A DNA stretch of 64,000 nt from Candidatus Omnitrophota bacterium. GTDB lineage: Bacteria; Omnitrophota; Gorgyraeia; Velamenicoccales; JABMQK01. Both the position numbers and the translations under genes were made by a program. Below the pieces are notes generated by a model that made no database searches, was not told where the DNA came from, and saw only the letters and a program-made list of their open reading frames with translations. Shown here in pieces: positions 12,401 to 57,400 of the stretch. The stretch is taken from contig JAQTSV010000001.1 of assembly GCA_028711115.1 (NCBI GenBank), forward strand, positions 1,496,928-1,560,927, read 5' to 3'. How positions within the stretch are numbered: the stretch's first letter is position 1; each line of letters starts with the position of its first letter.

Positions 12401-15400
12401 TCCAGTTTTCTTTTAACTCTGTTCTCCAGAATAATACCTGCGAAGATATCTCTGAGGACATTCTATATTGTATTGATTTGATATAGCTCCTCTCCCACGA
12501 ATATCCATTATCATTGACTATTACTGTATAACCTTTTTTCGCCAAGCCTTCTATAATTCCGACCCAATCTATTTTATCAATATAATGCTTATTAATATTT
12601 CCTAAAGGATTGAGGAATACACATTTTTTATTTTCTGCACCATGATCAGACAACCAAGTGTGCGCTTCTATTGATGGTGTATCATCTAGGCTAGGCGTTA
12701 ATAAAACAACTTCTTCATTAGGTACTATAAATCCTTTTCTGCGCAACGCCTCTCTGGCTGCCTGGCGATATACATAGCCTTGCGATAATAAATGTTTTAT
12801 ATCTGACCTAAGATCTAAAATATTTTTACCTATTAGGCATCTTGCAGATAGATTTATTACTAAATCGTAACTATCGGAAGAAGGATCTATATCCTCTGCC
12901 TTTTCTTCTAGAAAAACAACTCTTTCATCAACGCGCAACTCTTGATAAGAATCGAGATTAACTGGCTTAATCCTGTTATTAACTGTTCGTACGTTTGAAA
13001 GGGGACAAAGAGCATGCACTGCTAATTTGCCTTCCTCTCTTGAAGCCAGGCGAGGAAAACTATCCAAGCAGGCCCTGATGGTCACGGGGACAAGGCATAG
13101 CGCCATGCCCCAGGAAGCATTTCCCATATGAATAAGAACTTTTCTGGTGTTAGAAAAATCTATCTCCACCGGTGATGATGCGGCGCTCATTGTCGTTATA
13201 ATTAATTTTTCGCGCCTTATTTTCTTCGATTTTCCTGAATGCGGCAAATCTTGCGGCCTGGCTATGGTAAACGTTTCGTTCTTTGACCTTACTAAAACAA
13301 ATTCCTCATAGCTTGCGGTTTTTAACCCGGAACCTTCCATCGCAAACAGCATTGGCCTTTCCTGGCTTTCTGTTATGTAAACAGCGCAGAGCGCTTTAGG
13401 ATTATCTTGCCTTAGAAATGCTGCCGCTTCTTTTATAAATCTGGTTAAAGTCCTGTAATCCGGATCATAAAATGCGTAATCCAATTGGGAAACACCGAAA
13501 TGTTCCTGCGGTTTATTAAACCATGGTGGTGCGAATATAATTTTATCGAATAAATTCCTGTTATCCCTCAACGGATCAAATAAATCTCCTTCCAAAAGGT
13601 TTGACGGAAACCCAAAGCGCCTGAAATTTATCCTGGCAAGCGTTAGCGCCTCGGAATTTATATCCGTGCTTACAACATCACCCGCGCCTAATTGATACGA
13701 CCTTATGCCTAAGATTCCGGTGCCTGTGCCCATATCCAAAACCCTGTCGCCGGGCTCGATTATATTTTCCAGCTTCCAGGCGAATAATTCTCCCATTTCA
13801 GCGCAGTAGTGGTGCGGATCCAAAGCGTGCGGGCCAACCTGAATTTTCCCTCCCAGAACAGGAATATATTTTTTCTGCCAAGAGTGGGAAACAATTAAAG
13901 GAGAGGAAGTTTTCAAAATTAGGCTCTCCCCTGTCATTTCTTTGGGCTGCTGTTCGTTTATAACGCCCATAATATTCAACATATGAATCATTGTGGGCGC
14001 GACATCGCTTAAACCGCCGCCTTGGCGTAAGGAAATCTTTCCTAAACGAGCTGCCGGATCAACGACAAAACACGGAACCGGCGCAGTGCTATGGGATGTA
14101 TCTTCTTTACTGACTTTTTCTGCGTTGCCGTGGTCAGCAATACCCAATATAACGCCGCCGATTTCTTTATTGGCGTCCTTTAATATTCCAAAACATTTAT
14201 CTACCGCGGCAATGGCCTTTATGGTAGCCGGAATACTTCCGGTATGACCTACCATATCGAGATTTGATATATTAAGGATAATAACATCATACTCTCCGGA
14301 GAGCATCCGCTCTTTAATCTGTTCGGTAAGTTCGTACACGGACATTTCGGGTTTCAAATCAAAGGTTGCCACATTAGGCAAATCAACACATATAGTATCT
14401 TCACCCGGGAATTGTATATTTCTTCCGCCGTCAAAGAAAAAGTGCACATGAGGATATTTGGTAGTATCAGAACCGCGCAACTGCTTAAGCCCTAATTTAG
14501 AAATAAATTCACCGAATGTATTGGTCAATATTTGTCCCACAAATGCCACCGATAAATTTTTAAAGGCATCGAACTTTTCATCATACACTGTCATCGTAAC
14601 CCATTTGACCTTTGGTCTTACCTTACGCTCAAAACCTATAAAATTATCATCCATAAATGCCTCTGTTAACTGTATACCTCGTTCATTGCGATGGTTGACA
14701 AAAATCACCACATCATCATCGTGAATTACACATTCTTCGCCGATGAGCGTAGTAGGTATGATAAATTCATCCGTATCTTTATTTGTTTCCTTATCGTAAA
14801 AATATTCCAATACCTCTACAGGATCGTCTGTTTGTGCTCTATTTCCTTTTGCCTGAGTGAGCAAGTCATACATTACCTGTGTCCTATCCTTCCAGAATTT
14901 ATCTCTATCCATAGTATAGTATCTACCGCTGAGTGTCGCAATTATACCAATTAATATTTGCCGTATCTTTTCCTTTAATAAACGCATCCTCTTTGCTCCA
15001 TCTGTAGGCGGCGAATCACGCCCGTCGGTAATAGCGTGAATCAACACTTTGTCTTTATCAATGCCTTCTTTCTTGGCTAATTCCAAAAGGGCATAGAGAT
15101 GCTCATCGGATCCATGCACGACTGCGCGGCTGACAAGGCTTATGAGATGAACTTTGCTGCCTTTTTCTTTTGCAAAACGCATTGCTTCTACTAATGCCGG
15201 ATTTTTAAAGAATGACCCATCTTCGATTGCCCTATTTATCAACACCAAATTTTGCAGCGGTTTTGTGCCTGTGCCGATTGTCTTATGCCCGTCATTAGAA
15301 TTACCCATCGCGCCCTTGGGAAGCCCGACTGCTTCGCCCGATGCCTGCAGTGTAGTAAAAGGCTGACCTTTCATTACGCTGTCGAGATTGGGTGTGAGGC

Positions 15401-18400
15401 CTTGCTTGCTCGCTAAGTAAATAGGATTATCTTCGGCTTCTGGCCCTATTCCCATACCGTCGAATATGGCTAAAAGAAGTGTCGGCTTTCTAGATTTTGT
15501 TACTGGTGAAGAAGCTACTCCGTTGGCATCGGCTCGCTCAATCTTTCCTTTTGCCACAATAAGCGAGCCTTCGCGCAAACCACTTTCAATAACACTATTA
15601 AAATATAATTCAATATCATCCTGGCCGGCTACTGCATCGACAGGTAACATCTCTAATCCCAGGCGCTTCAGTTCAGAATTCAAAACTTTCGATATTGCCT
15701 GATACATATTACGCATAAATATTTCTGCTACTTGCAATTTACCGTGATCAAGAAGAACCGTACAATAACGAAGAGGCGTGTAGCCTGTCCCTGATTTAAG
15801 AATTCTTTGTATCTGGCGGCCAACAGCATACTCAGATAGCTCTTTGTCGGTAAAATATTCATCGAGATTTTTAAGATAGGTTAGCATTTGTAAGACGCGC
15901 GTTGCTTTATGTATCACCTCACGATTAGTGATAGAACCTTTTTTGGTATTTTTATCGAGCCTTACGTGGGCAGTTAGACCTGTTTTTTCTACTTCTACTT
16001 CAGTTATAAGCTCTAAGAGTTTAATGACAAAATCTAATCGACCTTGATGCACAGAGACAACTCCTTTATCAGTTACTTCAGTAGCACCCTCAAATTCCGC
16101 GAAATCGACCTCGACCTTTCGGTCGGCGGGAGTTATGTCGACAAAAACTTTGGCTGTATGAACCCCTAAGTCAACAAAGAACCACGCTTTTGTCCCGGCA
16201 AATATAGTGTACATATTTGTGCCTCTAAGTTTAGGTTGAATAAGGGCCACTTTAGAAGCAATCTCTCTTCCCACTGAAAATTCGCGACTAATGGTATCTT
16301 CTAAATCGATAACACGCACGTGCTCTGCATATGGAATTTCCGTCTTATCTTCATCGACTATAATACTTAAAAGACGGCCGGATATATGCCCAAGTTCCTG
16401 GCGCATCTTCAACCAATCACCTCCTATGGCCTGACGGAACACCCCAAAAATACCTTCCAAGATTTCCCTGTGTATGGAATTAACGAAGTGATTTAATCTG
16501 TCGCGACTTACATCGGACTGAATTTTTTGTAATTCTTCAAATTCTTTTGCATACTTACTCTCAATGCCCGCCATCTTTTCATGCTGAGCAAGCATTTCTC
16601 TAATAATATCAAAGATATTATTATAATTTAATGTATCTGCTCCGATAAGCCGAAGCACTTGAGAATTTAATTCACAGAATGCAATAAAATTAGCCACCCA
16701 ACCTTTTATTTTTGCTAAAGTTTCAACGGATGAATCTTCGACTACAACAGGTTGATAGGCCGTAAGGCAGCGTGTTAGTCTCGTAGTGCATCTTAGACTT
16801 TGTAACTCTGAAGAAATATCGTCTATAAGATAAGCCGGAAGATGAACAGGAGAAATATCTTCGGGGTCAGTAATAATATCCGTATATCGTAAAGTAGAAA
16901 TTATATCATTTGGCTTAACTGAAACAGTTTTGCCTCCCACATACAAAAACGTACCTAATTTAGAAAGTTGGATTAATATACTAACTTCTTTTTTAATCCT
17001 CTCTGCCAATTCCTGGGCGCGGGCGATAGTTTCTGCATTGAGTTTTTTATTTGCGGCAATTTCAGCCTTGCATTTCTCGGTATTATCGCTAAGTGCCTGG
17101 AGGTATGCAAAATCCCCCTCATTGGCAGCGCCTTCTAATATATCTTTTGTGGCGTCGCTTAATATATCATTGATTGTTTCATAAGAATTGTATGTTGATT
17201 CGGCTAAGACTGCTTCAGTGTGGGTTAATCCTTCAATGTGTTCGAGGAGTTCATGAATAATAAGCTGGGCAATAATATGCGGATATTTTTTGCCTGCTCT
17301 ATCGTAGTAAGCCTGCGTAATATTTATATGCAAAATAAGTTCGTTATTTTCTATAGTATATGTTGTGATTACGGGTATCGGCCTTCCGGACGATTTTGTA
17401 ATAAATCCTTGCGGCGTACCATAAGGAATGAGATTAACGCGGAACTGTTTAATGCGGGGGTTTTCTATTTCTTGTTTATCGATAATGACGTTTCTTTTTA
17501 CATCTACTTCCTCTGCGGCAAACAACCTTAAGATATTTGCAGGCGGGCCCTGAGGAATAATAATAGAGCCGACTAAATAGCTGATGATTTCGCTGTTTAA
17601 GGCAACTTCGCGTCCTTGGGCGCGGATAATCTGATTGATGTCAGCTACCAGTATATCTATTTCTCCCCGGACAATATCTCTGCCAATGGGTTTCTTGGCA
17701 TCAATTCCATATTGCCTGTTTGGTGTAATCGGCGAAGAGGATTTCTTGGGAAAAGCAGAAACCACTGACGATTTTAATGTAGGATCAAACCCTCTCACAT
17801 CCATCATTCCTATTCTAACTAATTCATCATCAGAGTAAGCCCTGTTAGTTGTTGAATTTCTTAAGAAATCCTTTATGGTAAAAGATTTATCAAGTTTACC
17901 TCTTAACCCACAGCCATATATATTAGCAAGGTCATCGGTAAGCAGGACATAGCCGTATTTTAATAGATGTATAATTGCCTGCCACTGGCTACCTGTCTGT
18001 CCTGTTATAGTCTTAATAATATGGCCAGGATATCCTATTTCATTCTTACCTTGTTTTTCTTTATTAAAAAACTGTATGAATGTCGGATCAACCAGATAAT
18101 GCTGTTTTCCATCGCTTACTACGACAAATGCATGTTGTTCTCCCTTAAATATTTCTTTGGCCTGGTGTGTTCTAATCTTTATATTCATACCCGATAAGCA
18201 GGTAATGCTAATTAAAAACTCTAGGCTTCTGACAATGTATGACTGTGCCTCACCGCAATAATCCTCAAGACTTTCAGCAGAAAAGATAGAATGTTTTCCA
18301 AGATTAGCATTTAAAGAAGCATCTTGTTTTGCTAGAGAATCTCGAAAAGCCGTTCTAAAATCTGCTACTGCTTGTTTAATAATATCCTCAAGGCTAACTA

Positions 18401-27400: not shown

Positions 27401-30400
27401 GATGCTGTGTCATTGCTGCAGTGCCTAATAACTTTCTAAAATATTTAACCAGTTCATCTAACGACACCTGGCTTATCGGGCTGGAGGATTGCAAATTGCC
27501 TTTTAAAGCTTTAGGCCCTGTTACAGCAATAAAACCGCCATCTATATAGGTATCTTCCGGTATAGCCAAATCCTTGAATATTTCCAGGCCTTTCTTTTCG
27601 CTAAATTCCCATTTCGGCCTAAAGCCCAATGCGCAGCTAGCCAATAAAATATTGGCAATGGCTGCTCCTGTATCCAAGTAAACAAATAAATTCTCGCCGC
27701 GTTCCTTGGTTGTGGTGGAGTGTTGCGAAAGATCACCAACTCTCCCTGCTCTTTTTACGTTTCCGATTACATAAACACCAAAAGGAATCATCTTGGCATC
27801 CAAATCAAGAACACTGCATACACTTTTTGTCCTTTTTTCAGTAAGGATAAATTCCGAAGTCTGAAGATTTTTGGCAGTGGGCGCCCATCGCGCAGCTTCC
27901 AAAAGAAATAAAATATTCTTTTCAGATTCACGAGGATTGGAGTTGGCAAAAGCAGCGCAATGATTCATGAACAGACTGGAAACAAGCGCGTATCCGTCGC
28001 CCGTGTCAAAAGTATCAATACCATCCTGAAGGACCTTTCCAGTATGGCCATTCTTATACTCAAGCTGATTAACTTTTCTGGCTTCGGTTTCTACTGCGGA
28101 TAAATCAATTACGGTATTTTCCTGCCAGGTTTCATGATGCGTTCTTTCCGCAATGTCTCTTCTCTTGGCTACGCGCATAGGCTCAGCAGGATAACCTAAC
28201 GGTATAATCGCTATCGGAGTTAAATCCGGGTTCGTTTTTAAAATTCCTCTGACTCTCTCTTCATCAAAACTACTAATCCAGAGAGAACTCAGGCCGAACG
28301 ATGTGGCCATAAGCAAAATATTCTCTATGTAAAGCCCTGCAGAAAGCAAGGTTCTTTGCTTATCCCTGGCCAATGCTCGTTTCTCGGCAAGGAATACCAA
28401 AGAAACCGGCGCCTGCGCTGGTTGCGGCTGTTTACCTTTCTTTATATCTTTGCCTAATTTTTCCCTGCTTCGTTTATTTTCAACAATAGCTATCTCAAAA
28501 TCGCTAGGATAAATAAAATATGCTGACCATTGCCGCGCATATTCCAATATCCTTTTAACTACTTCCTCATCTACTCCTTTATCAGGATCAAATTTTCTCA
28601 CGCTTCTTCGCGAGAGAATAACCTTGCCGATTCTATCTTTCAGCTGAGCCGGCGTAAATACATCTCCCGTTGTCTGCGTAAATGCCGGCATAGCCCAGCG
28701 GAATATACTCGACAGTACTTCTGATTCTTCTTCCAGTGCGCGCTTGAGAGATTTTCTATCCATGCCAAGTATGCAATCAACCCAGACGCCGAAATTACTT
28801 AGTGTTTTTAATGTAACTTCGGGAGTAACCCTAATAACATCAAAAAGTGAAATTCCTGAATCTATTATTCTTCCAATTTGATTAAATACAAAATCGCGAT
28901 GGCTCTGTTTTATTTTCTTATCGTAGAAAATGTCATGGCAGAAATATCCGAAATAAGCTATATGGAAGCGGTAGTCTATGCCGCGCTTTGCATACGCCAG
29001 TGACCACTCCAATGACTTTAATAATACTTCCGGCCCCATATCCGAAAGTACATACCTATATATATTAAAATGAAGGAATGTATTGGAATCTCCAGTGCGC
29101 GATGTAACAATTTTCATATTCTTTCTTTGCAAAGTAAGTGCTATCTCCTGAACTAAATCCAATGCCCTAAAGAACTCTTCAAGAGTAAACCAACGGATAT
29201 GTTTATGATATGGCTTTCTGATTGGCAGAAAATCATAGAGCAGAAGATAGGGGTCAAATCCTGCGCGGCTTAATAAAGTTGCGTTTTCGGCTATTCTGTT
29301 CCAAACCAGCGGCTGTTCGCTTTCGCTAAACTGACTTACCATTTCTTCGTAACCTTCTTCTGTATAATTACCGAACCGATCTCCGAGAAGTTTGCGTATC
29401 TGCTCTTTTCCATAAACGATATAATCCAGCGATACAAATCCATCAAAATGCGCGTGCTTAAGGAAGTGTTGTTTTATTTCGTCTCTTCCCATTGGTTTGT
29501 AGTTATTGTTGTAACCGGTACGCCTTCTTTCCTCTTCGGTCAATAAATTCAGGCATTCGTCATGGCTATAAAGCGACATTACGACTGGCGCCCTGGCAAA
29601 AATATCCATAAAATGTTCATCGCGCAGGAAGGGCGCGGTTCCTAATAAAAGCGAATTATGTCGGCCCATTAAGCGCGCGGCAATAAAACGTCCGTAGAGC
29701 GTATAAGCAAAAACCATGATGCGTGGATCATTATATTTAAACAAAGGCGTCTCTTCCACGCGGAAATAATCACTGATCATCTTAATGCTATAACTCAGGC
29801 GAGCTTCAGCAAACACTGTCATAAACACATTGGTATAAGCGCTGCCTGTTGAAGGATAATTCAACAATTCCTGCGCAGCGGCAACCGCGCTGAGTTCATA
29901 TTTGGCAAATTCTTTTAATTGGCCTTCTGCGTCGCGGAAACCGGCTAATTCAAGTATTGACAAAAATCTCCTAAACTCATCGGCATAAATATGCAGGAAT
30001 TCTTTTGTATTGGCATTGTAAGCAAAGAAACCGGGGACTTTTTTCATAAGTTGTAAAAATTCTTTGCTTTCTTTAGTATGCCCGCTTTTTTTCAATTCTC
30101 CTGCCACGTGATTAATTAATCCCTGGTTAATGCGGCTAATATGAGAAACTTTCCAGTGATAGCGGCTTACTTCGTCATAGTGTATTAAATCTTTGGCCAG
30201 CCCTCCCATTTTAATCTCTCTGGAAGAATCATTTATCGGCGAGCTGGAGATCCACTCTTTTATCCGCAAATCAATTGGTTGCTGCAATACTCTAATGGCT
30301 TGGGCATTATCATCAAAAGCTATTACATTCTTTCTGGTCTGTCCACACTCCTGGCATCTATAAACAATCATCCAGCGTTTCTTATCACTATTATATTCGA

Positions 30401-42400: not shown

Positions 42401-45400
42401 TTATTCTTCCTAAAACCAAACGGCGCCTATCGCGGCCGGGGTATTTTCTGAAATTTAATATTCTTTGCTGTATTAACGGATGCGAAATAAGATGCCTTAA
42501 GACAATAACTGTATCCTCTCTCGTAAATTCAGATTGATCCTTTAAAGCTTCATATCTTAAATCACCAACCTCGACTATATATAACAGAGCCGCTAATCTT
42601 TCTCTGATTTTTACACCGTTTTCGCCATCAACAGTCCTCCACCAATCCTTAAATAATCCCTCCTGGATATCCGGTAGGTGAGAATAATCTTCTACAATGG
42701 CATTCCATAAAACTCTATCTGACGAATAGCTCTCCATTAATATGCCCCTTACTGCGGAATCTGTTAATCTAGCCTGCTTAGCCATAAGCCCTTGAGCCTT
42801 CTGTCTGTTGGTTCTATATTCAATAACCTTGGCTGCGATATAGGGAATTTCGGCAAAATTTCTAAGATAAAGCAGTGTTTCACGCCTATGAGTCGACATA
42901 TCAGCACTACCTGCTACTTCCTGTCTTTCTAAGGCAATGTCGTTAATAAATTCGCCTTCGGCAATCCTTCTGAGTACTATACTTGCATCCGAAATTAATT
43001 TTAGTTGATCGTGGTAACGGCTGGGATTTATAGCTGCGGGAAATAGATTAATCCAACGCACAAGTTTTTCTCTTTCCGCCTCATCTTTATTCATCCAATA
43101 CAAAACCCAGGCTATATTAGTCCAATCGCCATCCTGCAGCTGTTCTACATATTGCGTTTCTCCTTCAAACAAAGAGACAGCTTCCTGGTATAAGCCAAGA
43201 ACTTCTTTATTTTCGGATAAAATACAATTTATCATTTCATCTAATGCCTTGTTAAATCGCGGCTTGCTTGTTTTAATTTCATAAGGCAATATGCTAAAAC
43301 TTATATCGCGTAAATTAACGATTCCTGAAATAATCCTATATTTATATTCATCCGCAGTAAATAAGGCTTCTGCTGCTTTGAATAACTCAGGGTAGCGCTC
43401 AGACAATATCCTTAAAAGCCACATCATGCGGTATCTCTTAAGTTTTTCATCTGTAACTTTCAAAGGCGAGGAGCAAGATAATCTGAAATCCGAAGGTAAA
43501 TTTTCGTAAAGCTTATAAGGCGCGGTGCGGCGCACAAAGCCATCAGTATCCAGTGCATACCCATGACGCTCAAAAAGTCTTTTATGCTTTTCTGTCGGTT
43601 TAACCTGTGCTGCATGAAAACCTGCCAGATACATCCAAATCTCTACGATATTTTCAATTCCTCTTAAGTCAACGCCGCGCAGATTAACCCGCTCTAAAAC
43701 AATGCTATAAAATACCTGAATTTCTTTTAATATGGCTGCTATCTCCCCAGGCTCTTTTAACAACCCAACAATCCCTGCGTCGCCTATCCCGTATATTCTT
43801 AAAAAGGCGCTGAGCACGTCTACAAAATTTGAGTAGCGTTTTGATAAGAAAATCCTGCTGCTTGGGTCATCTGCGTGATGCAGCTTTAAAACCATCCCCT
43901 TAATATTTCCATCATCAATAAATACATCATTAATAATAATAAAATTCGTAAGACCAAACCTGCCCAAATCTCCACGGAACCCTTTTCCTATTGCATAGAC
44001 AAGGCCCGGAATAGGCTCATTATTTCCGAAACAAATTAGATTATCCTTAAAGATTGTGGTTGATATACCCTGGGGATGTGACCATTTTAAATGTCCGTCT
44101 TCATAACATAAGACATATGAAGAATTGCCCAATAAAGACTCTATATGGCGGTCTTCGCAATCCTGGCAAGTACCTTCTCCCGGCCGCAATAAACTACTTT
44201 CAATTTTGCCTTCTGGGCCTAAGTAAATTCTCCGCGGATACTCATTTTCTGCCCGTTCATCCAAAAGCCCTAATACCAGCCTTGTCATTTCTTTAGCATG
44301 TTCTGAAACTTCCACCGGCGAGCTGGAGCATGGCAAGAATTCGCTTACAGATCTGAGGTCTTTCGGCATTAGCGACTCGGTGACATAAAGACCTTCTTCT
44401 TTTAATTTAACAGGCAATCTAACGGTAACTACAACACCTTTATTTTCATCACGACGATTGCCGATTTTAACACTGCCGCCTAATTCTTTTACAAAAATAC
44501 GATAAACAAAAATAAGACCGAGCCCTGTGCTTGGATATTCTCTTACGCTAAGTCCGGGCAGGAAAAGCAATGAGGGAACCTCTTCTTCGCTTAAACTTCT
44601 AATTTGCTCTTCAGGTATAAGCCTTTCTTCTATAGCAGCTTTAATGACTTTTTCATTATCAATCTGTTTGCCGTCATCTTTAAACGTTAATTCAATTTGC
44701 AAATTATCTTTGTCATCAATCAGATTCAAGTCGATTTCAAGGCAAGTAGTATTTTTATCCCCCCAGAATGCGTTCGCTACCAATTCCGCTATGACATCTC
44801 TAATCGTAGCTTCGCCTATGCCAACCTGGAAACCCGATATGCGTTCATCAATAAACAATTTTATTCCATTATAATGTTGTTCTACGGCTTTTAAGAAATC
44901 GTCTAAATATGCTGTATTTAAATATTCATAAAAACCTTCTGCTATTATCCTTCTGGTTTTAGCTTCAGATGGTCCTATTTTTATCTTTATTATAAGAGCG
45001 GTAATGACTAACAAAATATTTAGCGACAACGCTGCGGTTAAGAAATAAGTAGCCGGCAATGAAATCGAAAGCACATCGGCAATATGCGAAAATACGCTGG
45101 TTAGCGGCGAGCTGGAAAATTTAATACCAGGCCCTTCTGAGATAATCTGGCGCTCGAGGGGCGAGCTGACAGACTCAAGGCTATGTTTAATTCTGCCTAG
45201 GGTTCCCAAAAGGACCTGGCTTTTCGCAAAAAGATTCCAGAACCTGCCACGGTAGGTGGAATCTTGCGAAACAAATCTATTATTTAAGGTAATTGATTTA
45301 TTAAGATTTGATATTTGACTAATTGGGCTGGAGGAATTTGAATTGATTTCCTGACGGCTTGCCTCAATTGCGGAGGAGACGAGGCGGCCGCCTGGAATCA

Positions 45401-48400: not shown

Positions 48401-51400
48401 CAATAGAAGCTATTTTTTGTGCATCTGTATCTGATTCTATCGGCGAGGAAGAATCCTGTTGCACAGCTGGGAATGTCCTGTAAGGAATAGCGTATCTTCT
48501 CTGTCCTTCGTCAAAAGGTATTTCTGTGACAGGGAACTGATATCTAAAGGTTTCTTTGTTGGCTGTGGCCCTTATTCCTGCCTTCAAATATAAAGGCATA
48601 TCTTTTATCGCCTCGTACACTTCTTCTAATAATTGTTCTGACGCTAATGCTTCTCTATTAGACAGGCGCAGCAGTAAATCTGTACTCAAAAATGCTGTTA
48701 AAATAGTTTTGGCTCTTTCAAGGCCGGGGAATTCTATAATTCCTCTGGCATTAATATCTAATGCTATGCCTATATTATTCAATAATTCTATCTGCCGGGG
48801 AGTTAGTCCTTTTATATCGTAGTTATATGGCTGGCCTCCATATAACAATTTTACAATCGGCTTGTGGCAATCTTCTGTCAATGCCAATATCAGATAATTG
48901 ACAAAAGCCCTGAATTCTTTCGATTGAGCACCTTTTCCAAACACCTTGTTTACACTCTGCCACAGAGATAAATCCCTCACGGAAAATTCTATACTGCCGT
49001 CTGCCTGGAATATAAATTCTACAGCATCGGGGCATTCATAATGTGGTATATCAATACCTTTTTCTAGTAAAAACTTCCTTGCCCTGCCTTCTTTCCAGAC
49101 AATTGCAAAATCTGAACACGACAACTCTACTCCGCTTTTTCTAAACATCTCCTGAATTTCTGACCAAAGCTCAGCCGTAGCCGTGTGGAGATGAGCAAAA
49201 TATCCGGCGGCGAAAACACGGATTCTTATATCTTTACGGATTAACGTTCTAATCACATTTACATATTGCTCTTTATAAATGGCTTTTGCTTTCTCTACGT
49301 CCCTTAGCGTTATTGGATAATAAAGATGAAAACTTAATTCTATGTTCATATCATAAGGCAAATTGGCTATGCGTTCTGCTGCGCGCTGGCTTATGAGAAA
49401 ATTCTTTCTCCACCCCTGCGTAATAATATTTATTTTAAAGTTGGCTCGATGAAGACTTTCTACCACATCCGCTAAGTCCGCATCCAATACTTCATCATAA
49501 TAATCAAAAGCGTCATTTGCATCATGAAGCAAAATATCGTAACAACGTCTTTCTTTCATTTTCTCTATCATCTTCAAAACAAAAGGATAAGGCATGCTAA
49601 TAGCCTTACCTTTAGCATCTACAAAACAAAATAAACATCCCCTGGGGCATCCCTTTGTTATTGCTAATACAGTATACCTATTACCACCTAATGACACGAC
49701 TTTAAAGAATGCCTCTTGTACGGCATCTGGTATAGAAGCCATAACATCCACAAAAAGCTCTAAATCCAAATCTGTCTTTGAGACGACTGAAACAATCAGT
49801 TTTTGTCTTTCATCTGTTATGTCTTGAGCGCTTAAGCCTTCTGTCTGCCACTTTATAAATTGCGCTAATAAGTCCTTTCCTCTCTGGCTTAATATATTCT
49901 TCTTATCGTATGCGCTTAAAATACGGATTCCTTCGCTGAGTTGTTTCAAAGAAGAATCTTCCAGCGGCGAGGAGGAACGAAGCGACGACGAAGCCTCGCC
50001 AATTTCTGTGGCGGGCGATGAGGAAGAGGGGTCAGAAAGATTTAAAAATGAAGAAGCATCATCATAAAGCTTATAAGGTGCGGCGCGCTGCACAAAACCA
50101 TTTGCGTCTACTGCATACCCATAGCGCTCAAAAAGCTGCCTATGCTCATCTGTGGCTTTAATCTGCGCTGCGTGAAAACCTACCAAGTACATCCATATCT
50201 CTACGATACTTTCAATTTCTCTTAAATCCACACCTCTCAAACTAACCCTCTCCAGGACGCTCTGATAAAATATCTGGATATCTCTTAGTACTTCTGCAAT
50301 ATCCTCGGGGTGTCGTAGCAATTCCACAAGCCCTGCCACATCTTTATCATTTATACCATGTATTTCTAAAAATGCGCTAAGCACATCTACAAAATTTGAG
50401 TGGCGTTTTGCTATGAAAACGGTGCGCTCGGCGGGATATTCTGGCTTATGCAATCTAAAAATCATTCCTTTAATATTTCTGCCGTCAACAAATACATCAT
50501 TAATAATGATTAAATTAATAAGGCCGTGTTTCTCTACGTCTCTATAAACGCCTTTTCCTATTGCATAGACCAATCCGGGGATTGGGTCGTTGTTCCTAAA
50601 ACTAATCAGGCGATGTTCAAAATTTGCGACACCCATAACATCGCGCTGCGACCACTTTAAACGCCCGTCTTCATAACACAAAACAAATGACGAATCGTCT
50701 ATAAGCGATTGGGCATGGCGATTTTCGCAATCTGGACACACATTTACTCCTGGTTCCAAAAAGCTCTTGTCAACTTTACCGGTTGGGCCTAAGTAAATTC
50801 TTCTTGGAAATGCTTGTTCTGCCCGGCTATCTAAAATCTGCAATGCCTCCATTATCCTTTTATCAACTGACTCTTCCAGCGGCGAGCTGGAAACAAATAA
50901 ATAACTACCAGGCCCTTTTGAGCGCTTATCTTTGAGGGGCAAAGATAAGCCATCATCTTGGGTTCCCAAAAGGACCTGGTTTGCAAAGTCTCCATTACCT
51001 GCCACGGTAGGATGGAAACTTCGCGAAAATCTATCTGTATTGCTGACCGGCGAGCTGCCAGTTGTTTTTCCTGATTTTATTATTTGGGCGGGAGATTGTA
51101 ATCTATATGACTTATGTTTTAAACTATCCACTTCTGTTACTAAAGCCAAGCACTCTTTTTCTAATCTTTGAATATCTCTTTTAAAATCGACCACTTCAGG
51201 GGCTCTTTCAATATCATCAATGATTCGCTGTTTGCACACTTCTATTTCTTGTTCTAATTGTTCTATGCGTTCCCTGGCATATGCACTATTGTTCTTTGAT
51301 GTTTTTAATTGATTTAATCTTTGCCTTATCTTTGGTAATTCACGTTGATATTTTTTATTGCTTTCTCTTATGTTAGCTCTTGCGCCTTCTAAGCCAGCCC

Positions 51401-54400
51401 TTGCTTGTCTTAACAGCTTCCTCGTCCGATCCAATTGACCTTGTTTCTGTAAAAGTAAAATTCCCGTGCTAAAAATTGAGCCGGAGATTTCGGCATTGTG
51501 CTCATCCGTTGATTCGGTGATCGGCGAAGAAACAATTATGTCATCTTTGTACTGTTCGTAAAATCTGACAAAATTTAATACGCGTTTTCTCAGAAATTCT
51601 GCGCTTCTGCCTCTGGTAGCAGCAGCATCCAAGAAAGCACAGGTAATCAAGAAGGCAATTACTTCCTGGGCTCTGCCTGGTAATTCAATCCCTCTTACAA
51701 AATTCTGGACTATTCTGAAAGGTATCTCTCCTTGCGGCATTGCGTAGAGCGCGCCGTGGATCCTTATGACTTCCAATAATAAATCTCTATTTGGTAAATT
51801 GCTGGCTAATTCCTCGTGTTCCTCCAGCATCATTACTGACTCGGCTTCGTGTCCCGGATAAGTTATTAGCTTTACGCCAATCTCATTAGTGACTTCTGTG
51901 GGTTTAGTTCTTATCTTTCCTATATCATGTAAAACAATAAATGATTCGTAGAATATTCTGTTCTCCCGAGCAGCCAACATTAGCCTATATCTTAAAGGAA
52001 GTTCTTTGTATTTATCCTGGTTATTGAAAATATCAAGCATGGCCTGGAGATGGTCTCTGAGCAAACGCCCTTCTGCATGATAATTTAAAGGATGATTGGG
52101 TATATTAAAATCAAAATACCGCCTTAATATTGCCGGGATATGTAAATCTATTAATTCTGAAATATCGGTTACCGGCGAGCTCGACTGCGCATCCTGTTTT
52201 AATGCCGCCTCAATGGTAGGTATTAAGCTGGCAGTGCCTTTGAGTTCATAAATCTGTATGTCTCTTTCCATATGGATTATTGGATAGCCTGCGCTCTGCA
52301 ATGTAGTCAGGATGATGTCGCCGCCGACTAATTCAGTGAACAGTGTTTTTGAGCCTTTTTCTGCTTCCCTGACATATACAGGTACGTTGTAAGTCGAAAC
52401 ATTCTGTAAGGCATCCAGCACAAAGGCATGGTTAAATGTGGCTATGGGCTGAGTTTCAAATTTAATGTCCTTGAGGATTCTCTGCAAAGCCAGGCTTTCC
52501 ACAAAGACAACTTCTTTTGTATCCCTGTTGTAGAGTATTGTGCCGCCTTTTTGTATGTGTTTGGGATTTTGTTTGACGTATTCGCCTGCAGCATATAACT
52601 GGCCGTTGGCAAACTGGGGATGGACCATAGCCAAAAAGCCTTCGTTCCAGGGATCCTGACCCCAAGGCCTTAAGTCGCCGATGGTGCACTGGCTGACAAA
52701 TTTAACTCCTCTTTTTCTGGCGTATTCAAGAGAGGAGATGTTGAGCTGATGCAGCCTTCCATCTTTAGGCATAATGATATAGCCTTTGCCAACCAGGGTT
52801 GTTTCAAGCAGAGGTACGCCGTTACCGCCTGCCTTAAATATGCCCGGGGCAATGCTTACTGCCTGGCGTGTGGCAAGCGTGGGCAAGAAGACGGGATTTT
52901 TGCCCTGGGGCTGGATGATAAAACAAGCCCTGTTATAGCCAACGTATTCGTTTTGGATTAGTTCTTGGGCGATCTTTTCTTCATCGCCTTCTGTGCAGCA
53001 GAGGATGAATGTCTGTCTGGCGCGGGCTGCTGCTGTATCAAAATAGCGGGACTTCTGCTCCAATATCCTGGCTAAGATGGAAATATTACGCAAATCATTT
53101 CTTCTGTCTTTTAATCCTCTTATAATATCTACCTCTTCGGGTTTGATTTCTCCCTTGGCTAAAGCTCTTTGGAAGGCTTTTTCCAAAGCCTCATCTGATT
53201 CAGGGCTTAAGAGATGCCTTATGTCTAACAATATCTTGGGTACGCCCAATCCTAACCTGGTGGCGTCTCCGCCTGCAGGAATAAGTACTGCCCATTCGCC
53301 ACCGTAGAGGGATCTTCTGAAGGCAATCCTTGCTGCTTCATCGACCTGGCCTCTCAATACTGCGTCATTGCCGGGTGTACCTGCTAAGCTGACCAGGTTA
53401 GACAGCTGGGGATGTTCATTGAGTTCATCCAGATGATCAAAGATACCTTCGCCGTATTGTGATACCAAAGACACCAGGAGCGCCTGGGTGGCTATAAGCC
53501 ATGATTTATCATTAGTGTAGGAGCTGGCTGAGATGACCAGGGGCGAGGAGGAGCGACGCGTATCGGGCATATTTGGCTGCAAATCTGATATTTTTTCACG
53601 AAGACGTATCTCGCTTTCTCTTAAATTATTTGCGACTAAGGCAGAAACCTCTTCACGTCTAAAATCTTTTAGTCCATCTTGACCTAAGACTGCTATTATC
53701 CTATCCCTATAAAACCAATCTAACCAATTTGTTTCTATGTTATTAACCACTGCGTCCAATAACCCTAAGTGTTCATTGTATCTGTCTCCGTAAAATCCGG
53801 TTAATTGCGGTTTGCCTGCCAGCTTCTTCTTTTCCAGCCCTAATTGCCTGAATACTGCAGTATATATAGGTACCAATCTACCTATCGTAGGATTTCCATA
53901 GTCCAATTCTATTTCTTCTGTCAGACTTAAAAAGTAATAACCGTGTGCATACTTGGTATTGAATTGCAACCACTGGCTTATCTGATAAGCCCTCAAATAA
54001 ATCCTGGCTACAAATTCTGTAAGTAATTTTCCTCCTGTTAAATAGGACTCAAGCCAGCAAGTATGTATGCTGGCAGCTGCCCTATCTAAATTCAGATTGC
54101 CTTTGCCAATCAGTATAGCGCCTGAGAAAAATTCAACCGTTGCCTCAAATTCATCTTCTGATATTTTTGAGATATTCCACTGCTCATCTATAGTATGACT
54201 AAGAATTAACGGACGAACCTGTTCTGATGACTTATCGTCGCTCACCGGCGAACTGGACTGTCTTGCCTTTGCATCCTGTTTTAATGCCGCCTCAATGGTA
54301 GGTATTAAGCTGGCAGTGCCTTTGAGTTCGTGAATTGTAATCGGCCTTTCCATATGGGCAATCGGGTATCCGGCATTCTGGAGCACTGTAAGTATTATGT

Positions 54401-57400
54401 CGCCGCCGACTAATTCAGTAAACAACGTCCTTCTTCCTTGCGAATCCCTGTTTCCTTCCCTGATATATACAGGTATGTTGTAAGTCGAAACATTCTGTAA
54501 GGCATCCAGCACAAAGGCATGGTTAAATGTGGCTAAGGGTTGATTTTCAAATTTAACGGTTGCAAGAATTCTTTTCATAGCCAGACTTTCCACGAATACG
54601 ACTTTTCCTGTAAAAGGATTGTAAAGTACTGTGCCGCCTTTTTGTATGTGTTCGGGATTTTGTTTGACGTATTCGCCTGCGGCATATAACTGGCCGTTGG
54701 CAAACTGAGGATAAACCATAGCCAGGAAATCTTCGTTCCAGGGATCCTGTCCCCAAGGCCTTAGGTCACCTATGGTGCACTGGCTGACGAATTTAACTCC
54801 TCTTTTTCTGGCGTATTCAAGAGAGGAGATATCAAGCTGACGCAATGTCCTGTCTTTTGCAATAATATAACCCTTACCGATCAAGGTTGTTTCAAGTAAA
54901 GGCACGCCGTTACCGCCTGCCTTAAATATGCCCGGGGCAATGCTTACTGCCTGGCGTGTGGCAAGCGTGGGCAAGAAGACGGGATTTTTGCCCTGGGGCT
55001 GGATGATAAAACAAGCCCTGTTAAAGCCAAAGTATTCGTTTTGGATTAGTTCTTGGGCGATCTTTTCTTCATCGCCTTCTGTGCAGCAGAGGATGAATGT
55101 CTGTCTGGCGCGGGCTGCTGCTGTATCAAAATAGCGGGACTTCTGCTCCAATATCCTGGCTAAGATGGAAATATTACGCAAATCATTTCTTCTGTCTTTT
55201 AATCCTCTTATAATATCTACCTCTTCGGGTTTGATTTCTCCCTTGGCTAAAGCTCTTTGGAAGGCTTTTTCCAAAGCCTCATCTGATTCAGGGCTTAAGA
55301 GATGCCTTATGTCTAACAATATCTTGGGTACGCCCAATCCTAACCTGGTGGCGTCTCCGCCTGCAGGAATAAGTACTGCCCATTCGCCACCGTAGAGGGA
55401 TCTTCTGAAGGCAATCCTTGCTGCTTCATCGACCTGGCCTCTCAATACTGCGTCATTGCCGGGTGTACCTGCTAAGCTGACCAGGTTAGACAGCTGGGGA
55501 TGTTCATTGAGTTCATCCAGATGATCAAAGATACCTTCGCCGTATTGTGATACCAAAGACACCAGGAGCGCCTGGGTGGCTATAAGCCATGATTTATCAT
55601 TAGTGTAGGAGCTGGCTGAGATGACCAGGGGCGAGGAGGAAATGACGCTTGTTTTTTCAAAATCCAGAGAGCTGCTTGCCGTTCTATTCAAACGACTGGC
55701 GGGGGTGGTGCCAATGGCAGCCTCCGGATTATTGTTTATTGCTTTGAAATCTTCCGCCACGGTGGAATTCAAAACAACTGGTAAAAATCTATTTGTTAAA
55801 TTATTATTGGTTATAGGTGAGGATGATGACGAGATGAATTCATTTGCGTAATCTGCGGTTATAATTCTGCGTTCTCTGTGGTTCTGACGGCCAGCCTCGA
55901 TGGGTGAAGAGGCGCCGCCTGTAATCGGCCAGCCACGGGCTGAATTGCGTTCCGAAACCAAACCTTTATCAAATGGACTGGAGGATTGCACTTCCTGCTT
56001 CAGCACCCGATAGGCTTCTTCCACTTGCTGTGGAATATTAACGTACACGAGAAATCCCCTGCCTTGTGGGCCATATACATCAGGATGCAAACGATAAACT
56101 TCGCCGATAGCCATAGCAAGCATATATCTGAATTCTTTCTCCTCCATTGCTGCAATATTAGATATTTGCGGAGTAAAGCTGATAAGCGTTAATTTCTGCC
56201 ATTTTCTATTCTCTGCTTCATTAATAATTTTATCAAACGTTGCCATTGCCCTTCTCTGGAGAGCCGGATGCTGCAAGACGACAATGCTTCTAACGGCCTC
56301 ATTGCTGCCTTCCAGGAGCGCTAATGTATTGCGGATATTTTCTTCGCTGTTAGTTGAAGTGGTGTCAATGGCTACAAAATCTTCTTCCGGAATTCCATAC
56401 AGATACAAAATATCCCGATAAATTTCTGCTTCTGATTTTTCTTGTAAGCCTGCTATTTTATCTGCATACTGAGAGCGCTGGATATTCTCTCTTAATAATT
56501 CGGTCTCTCTGCCAATGCCTCCAGCGATTAAAATCCTTCTCGTCAATCCTTGTTTGTGAATGCGCGCTGCTTCTTCGATAACTTCAAGACGGCTACTGCC
56601 CAAAATTAAAAGAATATCAGCGCTTTGTATGCCAAACCTTTCAAATAAAGCTTTTGCGCTCATCTGTGCAACATCCCGCTGCGTAAGAAAATCAAGTAAC
56701 ACCTGTGTCTTGACCCTTAAGTCCACTGTCGGGCTTGAGCTTGTGAAATTATTTCTATCATTTGCTCTGATCGGGCTGGAATTGGTAGAATCATTTCTGT
56801 TTTCTTTACTCTGATTTGTGAGCGGACTGGAGCTTTTCTTCTTTTCTTTATCTAGTAACTCCCGTTTCTTTGCTTTGGCTGCTCGCTTTACTGTTCGATC
56901 TGAATCGTTTAGCATAGCATCTGTGATTTCAATAGATTGGGTAGCAGCTTTGATCTCAACTATATCCAATATCTTCTTTACTTCTTGTAAAGCTTGTTTC
57001 AACTCAGCGTGTTTGCCGGCATTAAAGTAAATAAGCGCTTTGTGCATAAAAGAGTTAAACCTGACTCTATCGCGATCACTCATTTTATCTTTATTTTTCT
57101 CGTATTTGTTAATGAAATCTAGATTTAAGGCTGTTGTATATCTAAGAATATATACCGCTGCAGCATCTAAAGACTGCCTTGCATATTCATAAGACCCATC
57201 GCCAAACCTTATCAGTATATTATGGAAAAATGCCTGGAGAGTGTTTCTATCGGGATTATCCTTAACAGGCATATCATTTTCTTTGCTGGCGTAGTCTTTG
57301 ATAAGCGCTATATATTCTTCTTTCAATTTATTGGCTGTCTTAAGCTCTATAATTTTACCTATCGCAATAAACACTACTATTAAACCTCCGACCACTAATC

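Follow-up and report, generated by a model that had tools for sequence, protein, structure and literature searches.

Results

Host gene and distribution of the element

The window (the whole stretch of DNA analysed, 64 kb in length) lies within a single minus-strand gene, the frame of which contains no stop codon, compared to between 706 and 1707 in the other five frames, and which exceeds the window at both ends. The gene is similar to giant genes of Omnitrophota and not to Rickettsia genes. It is made up of approximately 65 protein-sized modules linked by xSSP[ILVM] motifs (62 occurrences in the gene against approximately one expected), in which the rarest serine codon, TCG, is preferred; Pfam domains were identified in the modules, including one complete iPGM enzyme module. 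Homology between paralogous modules begins and stops exactly at the xSSP[ILVM] motifs, which identifies the SSP-to-SSP cassette as the unit of duplication.

The initial annotation had reported a hairpin-rich nucleotide element in three copies inside the ORF (plus-strand positions 1306-1460, 45127-45281 and 50908-51035), and all three are present there, within the one stop-free frame. Two further copies were found, a fourth in the window and a fifth on L124, a contig from another metagenome (Table 1). Each of the four window copies fills a short linker cassette between two xSSP[ILVM] motifs, and these copies are single, dispersed and 4.7-44 kb apart. The SSSP codons that flank them vary in sequence, and no constant neighbour module was found for the window copies among the Pfam domains. 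The junction motif itself was rejected as a hairpin, as junctions were not more strongly folded than random windows (p = 0.81) and their codons are variable, and the other short linker cassettes were rejected as structured elements (z +0.5 to -0.9).

Table 1. Positions of the host gene, the five copies of the element and their parts (window coordinates unless a contig is named)
Feature	Position	Strand	Remarks
Host gene	1-64000	minus	21,332 codons in a single stop-free frame; first full codon starts at 63998
Copy 1	1300-1465	minus	covariance model R1, 197.9 bits; sense fold -75.5 kcal/mol, z -8.1
Copy 1, leader	1452-1459	minus	
Copy 1, hairpin A	1401-1450	minus	
Copy 1, domain B outer helix arms	1382-1398, 1306-1322	minus	
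Copy 1, inner hairpin H1	1356-1378	minus	
Copy 1, inner hairpin H2	1326-1351	minus	
Copy 1, flanking SSSP codons	1482-1493, 1284-1295	minus	
Copy 2 (the locus studied)	45121-45286	minus	leader through end of domain B; R1, 193.5 bits; sense fold -65.6 kcal/mol, z -5.9
Copy 2, leader motif	45273-45280	minus	AUAGAUUU; single-stranded, preceded by an A-rich stretch
Copy 2, hairpin A	45222-45271	minus	stem UUUCGCAAGAUUCCA / UGGAAUCUU(UUU)GCGAAA, cap CCU[ACCGUGGC]AGG
Copy 2, hairpin A 14-mer	45243-45256	minus	loop core 45246-45253
Copy 2, domain B	45127-45219	minus	outer helix arms 45204-45219 (5') and 45127-45142 (3'); 16 bp, 3 G·U
Copy 2, hairpin H1	45178-45198	minus	inside the outer helix of domain B
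Copy 2, hairpin H2	45146-45173	minus	inside the outer helix of domain B; CCCCU loop
Copy 2, upstream SSSP codons	45324-45335	minus	upstream in the sense direction
Copy 2, downstream SSSP codons	45105-45116	minus	TCC AGC TCG CCG
Copy 3	50902-51040	minus	shorter, H1 deleted; R1, 116.7 bits; z -8.16 sense, -4.99 plus
Copy 3, leader	51027-51034	minus	
Copy 3, hairpin A	50983-51024	minus	
Copy 3, domain B outer helix arms	50965-50979, 50908-50922	minus	
Copy 3, hairpin H2	50924-50950	minus	
Copy 4	55652-55798	minus	very divergent, newly found; apex UCC[ACCGUGGC]GGA; leader as in the other copies
Copy 4, outer helix	55717-55728 with 55663-55675	minus	
Copy 4, inner hairpins	55698-55712, 55678-55696	minus	
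Copy 4, flanking SSSP codons	55815-55826, 55629-55640	minus	
Copy 5	L124:652-817		1.2-kb contig of another metagenome, unrelated ORF; 100.7 bits

Anatomy and conserved blocks

The element is 126-166 nt long and consists of two adjacent imperfect palindromes which, on the coding strand, are arranged as an A-rich leader ending in AUAGAUUU, followed by hairpin A and then by domain B. Hairpin A has an 11-15-bp stem and a 3-bp apex helix that closes an invariant 8-nt loop (ACCGUGGC), while domain B is a G·U-rich helix of 12-17 bp around one or two variable hairpins, one of which has a C-rich loop; in copy 3, domain B and H2 form a near-continuous duplex of approximately 27 bp. The stems previously quoted for the hairpin with the AGGGG loop, the second hairpin (lost in copy 3) and the long hairpin around the 14-mer are as had been described, and the outer blocks CCAGGCC and GGACCTGG do pair. 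The stem AGTCTCCAT/ATGGAAACT attributed to copy 3 is also present, but on the plus strand it contains a C·A mismatch, which is a G·U pair on the coding strand. A closing helix between leader and tail and loop-loop pseudoknots were dropped, as their complementarity is not kept among the copies.

Exactly three occurrences in the window were counted for each of the shared 20-mer/14-mer blocks, GGGTTCCCAAAAGGACCTGG and CCTGCCACGGTAGG, compared to no 20-mer match in shuffled sequences and no exact 14-mer match expected by chance. A looser pattern (ATAGATTT..ACCGTGGC) occurs four times against none expected, once in each of copies 1-4, and its core ACCGTGGC is exclusive to these four window copies. 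The covariance-model scores of copy 4 are marginal (14.3 bits, E ~0.075, and 11.5 bits in a second search), and its sense strand folds with a z score of -5.62 (0/200 shuffles) compared to -2.07 for the plus strand, which is hardly more stable than shuffles. The remaining covariance-model matches and stable windows were rejected as further degenerate copies, falling within ordinary enzyme modules.

All five copies lie in the orientation of their ORF, in frame and with no stop codon. Their flanks are mutually unrelated in sequence, while the conserved blocks are exact between the two organisms. Copy 5 is preceded directly by a hydrophobic segment, with neither a junction motif nor an A-rich leader upstream. 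Terminal inverted repeats of the whole element are absent; in every copy domain B alone is bounded by a 15-17-bp inverted repeat, with hairpin A and the leader outside it. None of the copies is bordered by a direct repeat indicative of target-site duplication, and neither the 64-kb window nor the 1.2-kb contig shows a transposase, which makes mobility of the element putative. Classification as a miniature inverted-repeat transposable element (MITE) was rejected on the first two of these grounds.

Folding and covariation

On the coding strand the element folds with z scores of -5.6 to -8.2 and energies of -49 to -75 kcal/mol, and when all 160-nt segments of this strand of the window are ranked by structure, copies 1-3 take the first three places. 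The compensatory base changes that had been claimed are real: nine pairs were changed on both sides in the three-copy set, compared to 4.0 +/- 1.5 in shuffled (0/500) and 1-3 in slid controls. In a four-copy alignment, to which the fourth, independent copy was added and which was fitted to a covariance model, there were 11 double-changed pairs and 16 double-changed cells, compared to 4.9 and 5.6 in shuffled (at most 1/500) and at most five in slid controls, with 90.7% of cells paired; these statistics are weak on independence, there being only five copies in all, of which copies 1 and 2 are close relatives. The model-based alignment (A8) was used; MAFFT alignments (A6 and A7) put the helices of copies 3, 4 and 5 out of register. 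The apex helix CCU/AGG is replaced by UCC/GGA in copy 4, and some stems are swapped between copies for unrelated but complementary sequences.

Nucleotide and peptide constraint

Conservation of the element is that of a nucleotide-level fold and not of the encoded peptide. The loop ACCGUGGC is read as TYRGR in copies 1, 2 and 5 but as (P/S)TVA(G/E) in copies 3 and 4, and thus in two reading frames. Every copy keeps the ORF frame open, with 1-6 stops in the other frames, and indels of 1, 5, 18 and 3 nt in copy 3 return the reading frame. The pN/pS ratio is 0.68 between copies 1 and 2, with zero synonymous changes across the first 27 codons, and 0.76 between copies 1 and 5 (1.1 in the conserved half), while paralogous real modules taken for comparison gave 0.23-0.54. 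The strings NQVLLGT, GPG and SSPLE recur in the peptides of copies 1, 2, 3 and 5; the peptide of copy 4 has only NRF in common with the others. The element peptide had no match in Pfam, and a word search found no homologue among 5.8 billion proteins. The two-frame core, the pN/pS ratios and the helix covariation bear out the earlier designation as a hairpin-rich nucleotide element rather than a peptide motif, and the peptide alone does not account for the conservation, since synonymous sites are equally conserved.

Searches for relatives and known classes

By covariance-model search, the element matches no described RNA family: Rfam gave no match at gathering thresholds across the whole window, and at E <= 10 copies 1 and 3 returned only noise (at most 15.6 bits, compared to cut-offs of 50-92). 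The exact 20-mer was found neither in 596 Gb of reference genomes nor in the JGI metagenome collection as part of the element; in GTDB genomes, JGI metagenomes and IMG/VR the only matches were three chance ones, all without the rest of the element. This absence indicates that the family is rare or restricted to a lineage, in which it differs from typical repeats of high copy number. In IMG/VR more than 120 chance matches were obtained with the looser pattern ATAGATTT..ACCGTGGC, and the covariance model was negative across 735 kb of these, which served as its negative control. No match was obtained in a word-indexed protein search with the 800-amino-acid flank or by blastn against plasmids and phages.

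An exhaustive profile search returned 20 matches, of which one (P0136) was real. A further 18 were translated CRISPR-like arrays reading CNSTYRLRYWN and the last was a PAS-repeat kinase, the scores of all 19 being inflated by the summing of many short stretches.

Several known signals were also considered and rejected. A stimulator of -1 programmed frameshifting, which would call for a conserved heptamer X XXY YYZ placed 5-9 nt before the structure, is not indicated, as the sequence A AAA AAU precedes the leader in copy 1 only and copies 2, 3 and 4 are without a slippery site. No intrinsic terminator was found at copy 2 on either strand, and on the coding strand there is no U tract 3' of either domain. 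An intron or translational bypass was set aside given the open frame of all copies and the frame-restoring indels of copy 3, and an RfaH ops-like site (CGGTAG) given its position on the wrong strand and its loss in copy 4.

Discussion

A proposed in-frame palindromic repeat

The explanation we favour, with middling confidence, is that the element is a previously undescribed palindromic repeat resembling repetitive extragenic palindromes (REPs) and Rickettsia palindromic elements (RPEs), which is tolerated in frame and forms strong mRNA structure at module junctions. It would be a portable nucleic-acid element of approximately 125-165 nt, retained for its fold and with an incidental peptide, that spread as linker cassettes or into them, a position in which 45-55 additional residues may be tolerated. 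Once transcribed, it would give a very stable mRNA structure at the junctions, the likely consequence of which is a local barrier, acting either as a ribosome pause or as a barrier to, or target of, RNases. The copies, block conservation, covariation, frame independence and location are observed, whereas the mode of spread and any effect on translation or decay are inferred. Ordinary duplication of cassettes within the gene could also have been the source of the copies.

RPEs are in-frame palindromic repeats through which host proteins gain an additional stretch of peptide (PMC10969869), and the Rickettsia-like alternative raised in the initial annotation remains the closest behavioural analogue. 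Both systems comprise palindromic repeats of approximately 150 bp inserted in frame without stops in unrelated coding contexts (PMC10969869), a likeness at the level of their description. RPE families, however, have a conserved peptide in one frame, whereas the core of the present element is read in two frames and its peptide is near-neutral; it also differs in copy number and lineage, in residing in giant-gene linker cassettes and in having blocks identical across organisms.

Dispersed imperfect palindromes whose transcripts form stable hairpins are likewise known as REP/BIME, Correia and ERIC elements (PMC10969869, PMC3733652). Correia hairpins are RNase III substrates and ERIC elements modulate decay by RNase E (PMC10969869), and an effect of this kind on mRNA is, by analogy, how the present element is likely to act. 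The elements named are found outside genes or between cistrons, whereas this one is intragenic, in frame and two-domained; it is four to five times longer than REPs (20-40 bp, tagged at one end by GTAG or CGTC) and lacks the terminal inverted repeats of Correia and ERIC elements. PARCELs are coding repeats with DNA-level dyad symmetry that have spread through horizontal transfer and through shuffling within genomes (PMC2996958), but they form tandem 75-nt units with a conserved 25-residue amphipathic motif, in contrast to single, dispersed copies with no conserved peptide.

A possible cis-acting signal of the giant gene

It is possible, though we hold it tentatively, that the element is instead a purpose-built cis-acting RNA signal for expression of the giant gene, the fold of which the host selects as punctuation of the transcript where modules meet. 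Such a signal could serve as a ribosome pause for module folding, membrane insertion or cleavage, as a processing or stability site for RNase III or RNase E, or as a site for an RNA-binding protein. The exactness of the blocks in two organisms despite unrelated flanks argues for such a role, as do the coding orientation of all five copies, the placement of all four window copies precisely between junction motifs and the G·U patterns, which favour the transcript strand. Copy 4 is strongly diverged yet keeps every helix, which suggests selection at the locus and is more in line with a function for the host than with the decay of a selfish copy. The duplex of copy 3 is of a size class (approximately 27 bp) that RNase III accepts, and the use of the rarest serine codon at junctions is compatible with programmed slowing. 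Against this, only four of the approximately 65 junctions bear the element, at irregular spacing, there is no fixed neighbour module, and junctions in general and the other short cassettes are unstructured. The upstream context of copy 5, without junction motif or A-rich leader and following a hydrophobic segment, also fits poorly, and cleavage of a stop-less mRNA would strand ribosomes.

Polyprotein genes of viruses offer a parallel in which strong RNA structure lies at the boundaries of independently folding units within one long ORF. A SHAPE study of the HIV-1 genome reportedly found strong mRNA structure at the domain junctions of the polyprotein ORF and proposed that ribosomes are slowed there. 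The HIV-1 structures are a statistical tendency among unrelated local folds, whereas the present element is repeated, conserved in sequence and covarying. A bolder version, which we consider rather unlikely, is that the element represents a new class of cis-acting RNAs that belong to giant multi-enzyme genes without stops and to these alone, punctuating protein units together with xSSP[ILVM].

Strand of action and possible activity as DNA

The initial annotation had left the functional strand unresolved on contradictory G·U arguments. Its apex argument stands: a conserved apex A·C on the coding strand is G·U on the plus strand in all five copies, as is favourable to the plus strand, and the closing pair of H2 in copy 5 behaves likewise; the apex can alternatively be read as a 3-bp helix and an invariant 8-nt loop. 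G·U counts and folding energies, on the other hand, moderately favour the coding strand. In the shared structure 16 G·U cells pair on the coding strand only, compared to four A·C cells, and five of five copies reach a lower folding energy on this strand than on the other. The coding strand folds better window-wide, however (mean -3.4, sd 7.3 kcal/mol), and the advantage of the element is within approximately 2 SE of this background bias, so that the strand call from minimum free energy alone is only moderate evidence. The coding strand, i.e. the mRNA, is probably the active one, presumably as RNA rather than as single-stranded DNA.

Action at the level of DNA or from the other strand appears improbable; the element would then be a single-stranded DNA hairpin or cruciform for a recombinase or transposase (as in REP/RAYT or IS200/IS605 ends), a dyad protein site or an antisense RNA. 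Since single-stranded DNA forms G·T pairs as well, the strand asymmetry is no proof of RNA, and the apex 14-mer is an imperfect dyad whose odd position is the one that pairs as G·U (G·T) on the plus strand in every copy. The plus-strand CGGTAG is reminiscent of the GTAG tag of REPs (PMC3733652), but GTAG occurs on the non-coding strand only, is located within the apex rather than at the palindrome end, as the REP tag is, and is lost in copy 4 (CGGTGG). The plus strand folds more weakly in every copy, down to the z score of -2.07 in copy 4, and the symmetric half-site change from CCU/AGG to UCC/GGA is predicted by pairing and not by a fixed protein site. An antisense transcript, which had been put forward earlier, finds no support in promoter- or terminator-like signals, none of which was above chance near copy 2.

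Readings as peptide or ribozyme

A small protein module or linker peptide, with the hairpins as a by-product of codon choice, is effectively refuted and retains very little probability: the frame is open in all five copies and peptide strings recur in four, but the two-frame core, the divergent copy 4 peptide beyond NRF, pN/pS ratios of 0.7-1.1 with synonymous sites frozen within conserved blocks, the replacement of stems by unrelated complementary sequences and the lack of any Pfam match or homologue in the word search all stand against it. Equally improbable is a self-cleaving ribozyme, as the initial annotation had entertained, or an intervening sequence, whether removed or bypassed; the fold is compact and multi-helical with invariant unpaired nucleotides, but no Rfam ribozyme family, self-cleaving classes included, was matched even at E <= 10, the junction that would form the catalytic core is not conserved, one hairpin is missing in copy 3, and compensating indels actively preserve the frame, which would be pointless if the element were skipped.

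Relevance to giant-gene expression

A preprint on bacterial giant genes states that information on cleavage points is lacking, and neither a linker motif nor a hairpin element is mentioned there or in a second such preprint. A covariation-supported element lying exactly at giant-gene module junctions and recurring in another organism offers a concrete handle on the transcription, translation and possible cutting of genes of tens of thousands of codons. Were the element to punctuate the transcript, many proteins would be made from one ORF of more than 60 kb, and the element would be the first known case of an RNA signal organising bacterial giant-gene expression, marking points of cleavage or pausing. 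If it is merely a selfish repeat, in-frame palindromic elements, which are rare, would extend beyond Rickettsia, in a variant with an unconstrained peptide.

Copies of the element in the giant reading frame

The three copies described in the initial annotation were recovered with their shared blocks exact: a 20-mer, GGGTTCCCAAAAGGACCTGG, occurs three times in the window and had no match in shuffled sequences, as does a 14-mer, CCTGCCACGGTAGG (n=3), for which no exact match is expected by chance. The minus strand is one stop-free frame over all 64 kb (21,332 codons), compared to 706-1707 stops in each of the other five frames; the element therefore lies inside the ORF, as had been claimed, and the sequence originally described is the antisense of that ORF.

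A covariance model was made from copies 1-3 and run unfiltered on the window. This search for further copies, proposed earlier, turned up copy 4, with a score that is marginal taken alone. The 8-mer ACCGTGGC is present exactly four times in the window (both strands counted), and ATAGATTT lies 26-29 nt upstream of it on the coding strand in 4/4 cases, a spaced pattern found in none of 100 shuffles. Copy 4 has a folding z-score of -5.62 on the coding strand (equalled by 0/200 shuffles) compared to -2.07 on the other strand, and its fold has the architecture of the other copies. Two extra ATAGATTT motifs, in another reading frame (IDL, IDF) and without hairpins downstream, could be leftovers of the element leader, or chance.

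Features of the element and its surroundings (scores are from the covariance model)
Feature	Position	Strand	Description
Copy 1	1306-1460		198 bits
Copy 2	45127-45281		194 bits
Copy 3	50908-51035		117 bits
Copy 4	55652-55798	minus	14.3 bits, E ~0.075
Copy 5	L124:652-817		100.7 bits, E 3.5e-25
Leader		coding	A-rich, ends in AUAGAUUU; copy 5: UUAUAUUU
Hairpin A		coding	11-15-bp stem; 3-bp helix on top closing ACCGUGGC
Domain B		coding	12-17-bp outer helix around hairpin with C-rich loop and second hairpin (missing in copy 3)
Extra ATAGATTT motifs	52144-52151; 13156-13163	minus	2-11 codons past SSP junction
Example junction codons	45105-45116; 44316-44327; 15496-15504	minus	xSSP[ILVM]
iPGM module	~13932-15490	minus	aa 16170-16689
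Paralogous modules	52180-53560 and 54262-55640		92% aa identity
Paralogous modules	43468-44327 and 50026-50891		57-60% aa identity
Structured window	28241-28400	minus	-3.7 sd, G+C-corrected; nitroreductase module
Structured window	53961-54120	minus	-3.5 sd, G+C-corrected; unknown module
Adapter sequence	L124:1-36; L124:1158-1194		Illumina

Fold and strand

Folding energies of the copies on the coding strand range from -49 to -75 kcal/mol (z -5.6 to -8.2), and the three most structured 160-nt coding-strand windows of the whole stretch are copies 1-3. The next two are within ordinary modules and unrelated to the element. The compensatory base changes previously claimed were confirmed: double-sided changes were counted at 9 pairs in the three-copy alignment (shuffles 4.0 +/- 1.5, 0/500; slid controls 1-3) and at 11 pairs (16 cells) in a model-based four-copy alignment with 90.7% of cells paired (shuffles 4.9 and 5.6, <=1/500; slid controls <=5), figures which come from few sequences, with copies 1 and 2 closely related and the alignment fitted to the model. 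In the CCCCU-loop hairpin 7/10 pairs are compensated, the apex helix is UCC/GGA in copy 4 in place of CCU/AGG, and hairpin A of copy 5 differs from that of copy 1 (reference) by two compensatory and three G·U-making changes.

The functional strand, previously left unresolved, is probably the coding strand. The shared structure contains 16 G·U cells, which pair on the coding strand only, compared to 4 A·C cells, which pair on the other strand only; the coding-strand fold is far better defined in the ensemble, and its energy is lower in 5/5 copies, by 1.5 to 17.4 kcal/mol. The energy argument is a moderate one because the whole window is biased towards the same strand (-3.4 +/- 7.3 kcal/mol). 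The earlier observation that G·U pairing at the apex favours the + strand still stands against this assignment, as a conserved A·C on the coding strand is a G·U on the + strand. The pattern suggests rather than establishes RNA, because single-stranded DNA would produce an identical one through G·T pairing.

Constraint on nucleotides

The constraint on the element acts on nucleotides, not on the peptide. Copies 1, 2 and 5 translate the invariant core as TYRGR, and copies 3 and 4 translate it as (P/S)TVA(G/E). The apex of copy 3 is flanked by indels of 1 nt and 5 nt, one on either side, such that the frame is shifted and then regained. Between copies 1 and 2 pN/pS is 0.68, with no synonymous changes over the first 27 codons and 25 differences over the other 33, and between copies 1 and 5, from different organisms, it is 0.76 for the whole and 1.1 in the conserved half, compared to 0.23-0.54 for true paralogous modules of this gene. 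The element peptides matched no Pfam family.

Host gene and cassettes

The 21,332-aa frame contains 62 occurrences of the motif xSSP[ILVM] (mostly SSSP[ILV]), compared to approximately one in shuffles; the residue after SSP is I, L, V or M in 62/65 cases. The motif splits the ORF into ~65 protein-sized modules of median 248 aa. Its codons vary (TCC, AGC, TCT and others) among 43 SSSP sites, and it is therefore selected at the amino-acid level, yet they are strongly biased to TCC..TCG CCG (first Ser TCC 35/43, third Ser TCG 27/43, Pro CCG 28/43), although no Ser codon is used less often in the ORF than TCG (11%). This bias may result from slow decoding at junctions or from gene conversion between them. 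In a polyprotein, the motif could signal cleavage or pausing or act as a linker; it is mentioned in neither of two giant-gene preprints.

Whole enzymes were found between junction motifs. A complete 2,3-bisphosphoglycerate-independent phosphoglycerate mutase (iPGM), bounded by ASSPV and TSSPL, covers 100% of stand-alone enzymes (~505 aa) end to end, at <=50% identity to any; the giant gene thus carries in-frame fusions of housekeeping-type enzymes. Among the further modules are HATPase_c, radical SAM, PPDK_N, nitroreductase, kinases and methyltransferases. Of the giant proteins described in Omnitrophota, the ORF fits the 'multi-enzyme metabolic cluster' class (bioRxiv 10.64898/2026.06.07.730766). 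Homology between paralogous modules begins and stops exactly at SSSP codons, and the SSP-to-SSP cassette therefore appears to be the unit of duplication and shuffling within the gene. Copies 1-4 each lie alone in a short cassette flanked by two junction motifs; no structure was found at junctions generally or in other short cassettes, so the element is special.

Possible nature of the element

There is about an even chance that the element is a new palindromic repeat that would enter, or become, linker cassettes and, in the mRNA, fold into strong structure at module junctions. The earlier comparison with in-frame Rickettsia palindromic elements (RPE) holds for behaviour, these and transcribed REP, Correia and ERIC repeats being the closest analogues (PMC10969869; PMC3733652). 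The element lacks the conserved peptide that defines RPE and the defining structures of MITE and REP, and so belongs to none of those families. Taken as a whole, it has neither terminal inverted repeats nor target duplications.

It is possible, although rather unlikely, that the element is instead a punctuation signal selected by the host for pausing or processing. Action at the DNA level or as antisense is doubtful: promoter or terminator signals near copy 2 were not above chance. A peptide module is very improbable given a core in two frames, pN/pS of 0.68-1.1 and no Pfam match. A ribozyme, as once suggested, or a removed sequence is equally improbable: Rfam gave no match in the window at gathering thresholds and none to the copies at E <= 10, and an intron or bypass element was rejected because the reading frame is actively kept open. 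No tRNA or tmRNA was found, and no slippery site is conserved among the copies.

A copy on another metagenome contig

Reference genomes, JGI metagenomes and viral contigs were scanned for exact words, with chance matches only, and protein searches by indexed words found nothing. A profile search with the copy 1 and copy 2 peptides, run exhaustively over 1.84 billion representative proteins, gave 20 matches, 19 of them artefacts. The real match, P0136, contains ...SQSSPYRGRLRSFAENQVLLGT...FSSPLEL...GPG... and is encoded on L124, a 1.2-kb ENA contig also found in a Logan assembly. Copy 5 on this contig carries CCTACCGTGGCAGG, CCAGGTCCTTTTGGGAACCC and AAGGGCCTGG exactly, in the same orientation and frame as its ORF, which stops ~88 codons further on; its flanks do not resemble any part of the window, and a junction motif is present downstream and absent upstream. 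Adapter occupies both contig ends, leaving a genuine insert of ~1.12 kb. The ORF is open up to the start of the insert, and the host protein therefore exceeds the recorded 331 aa.

One of the 19 artefacts is a PAS-repeat kinase. The other 18 (P0122-P0135, P0137-P0140) were rejected as homologues, their E values (down to 3e-8) arising only from many short matches summed. They are built from repeated CNSTYRLRYWN, VATVLTVYGIET and LQQYLPFTVLK, three frames of one ~36-nt repeat with unique spacers between units, and look like translated CRISPR arrays, with TGA read as Trp needed in one frame.
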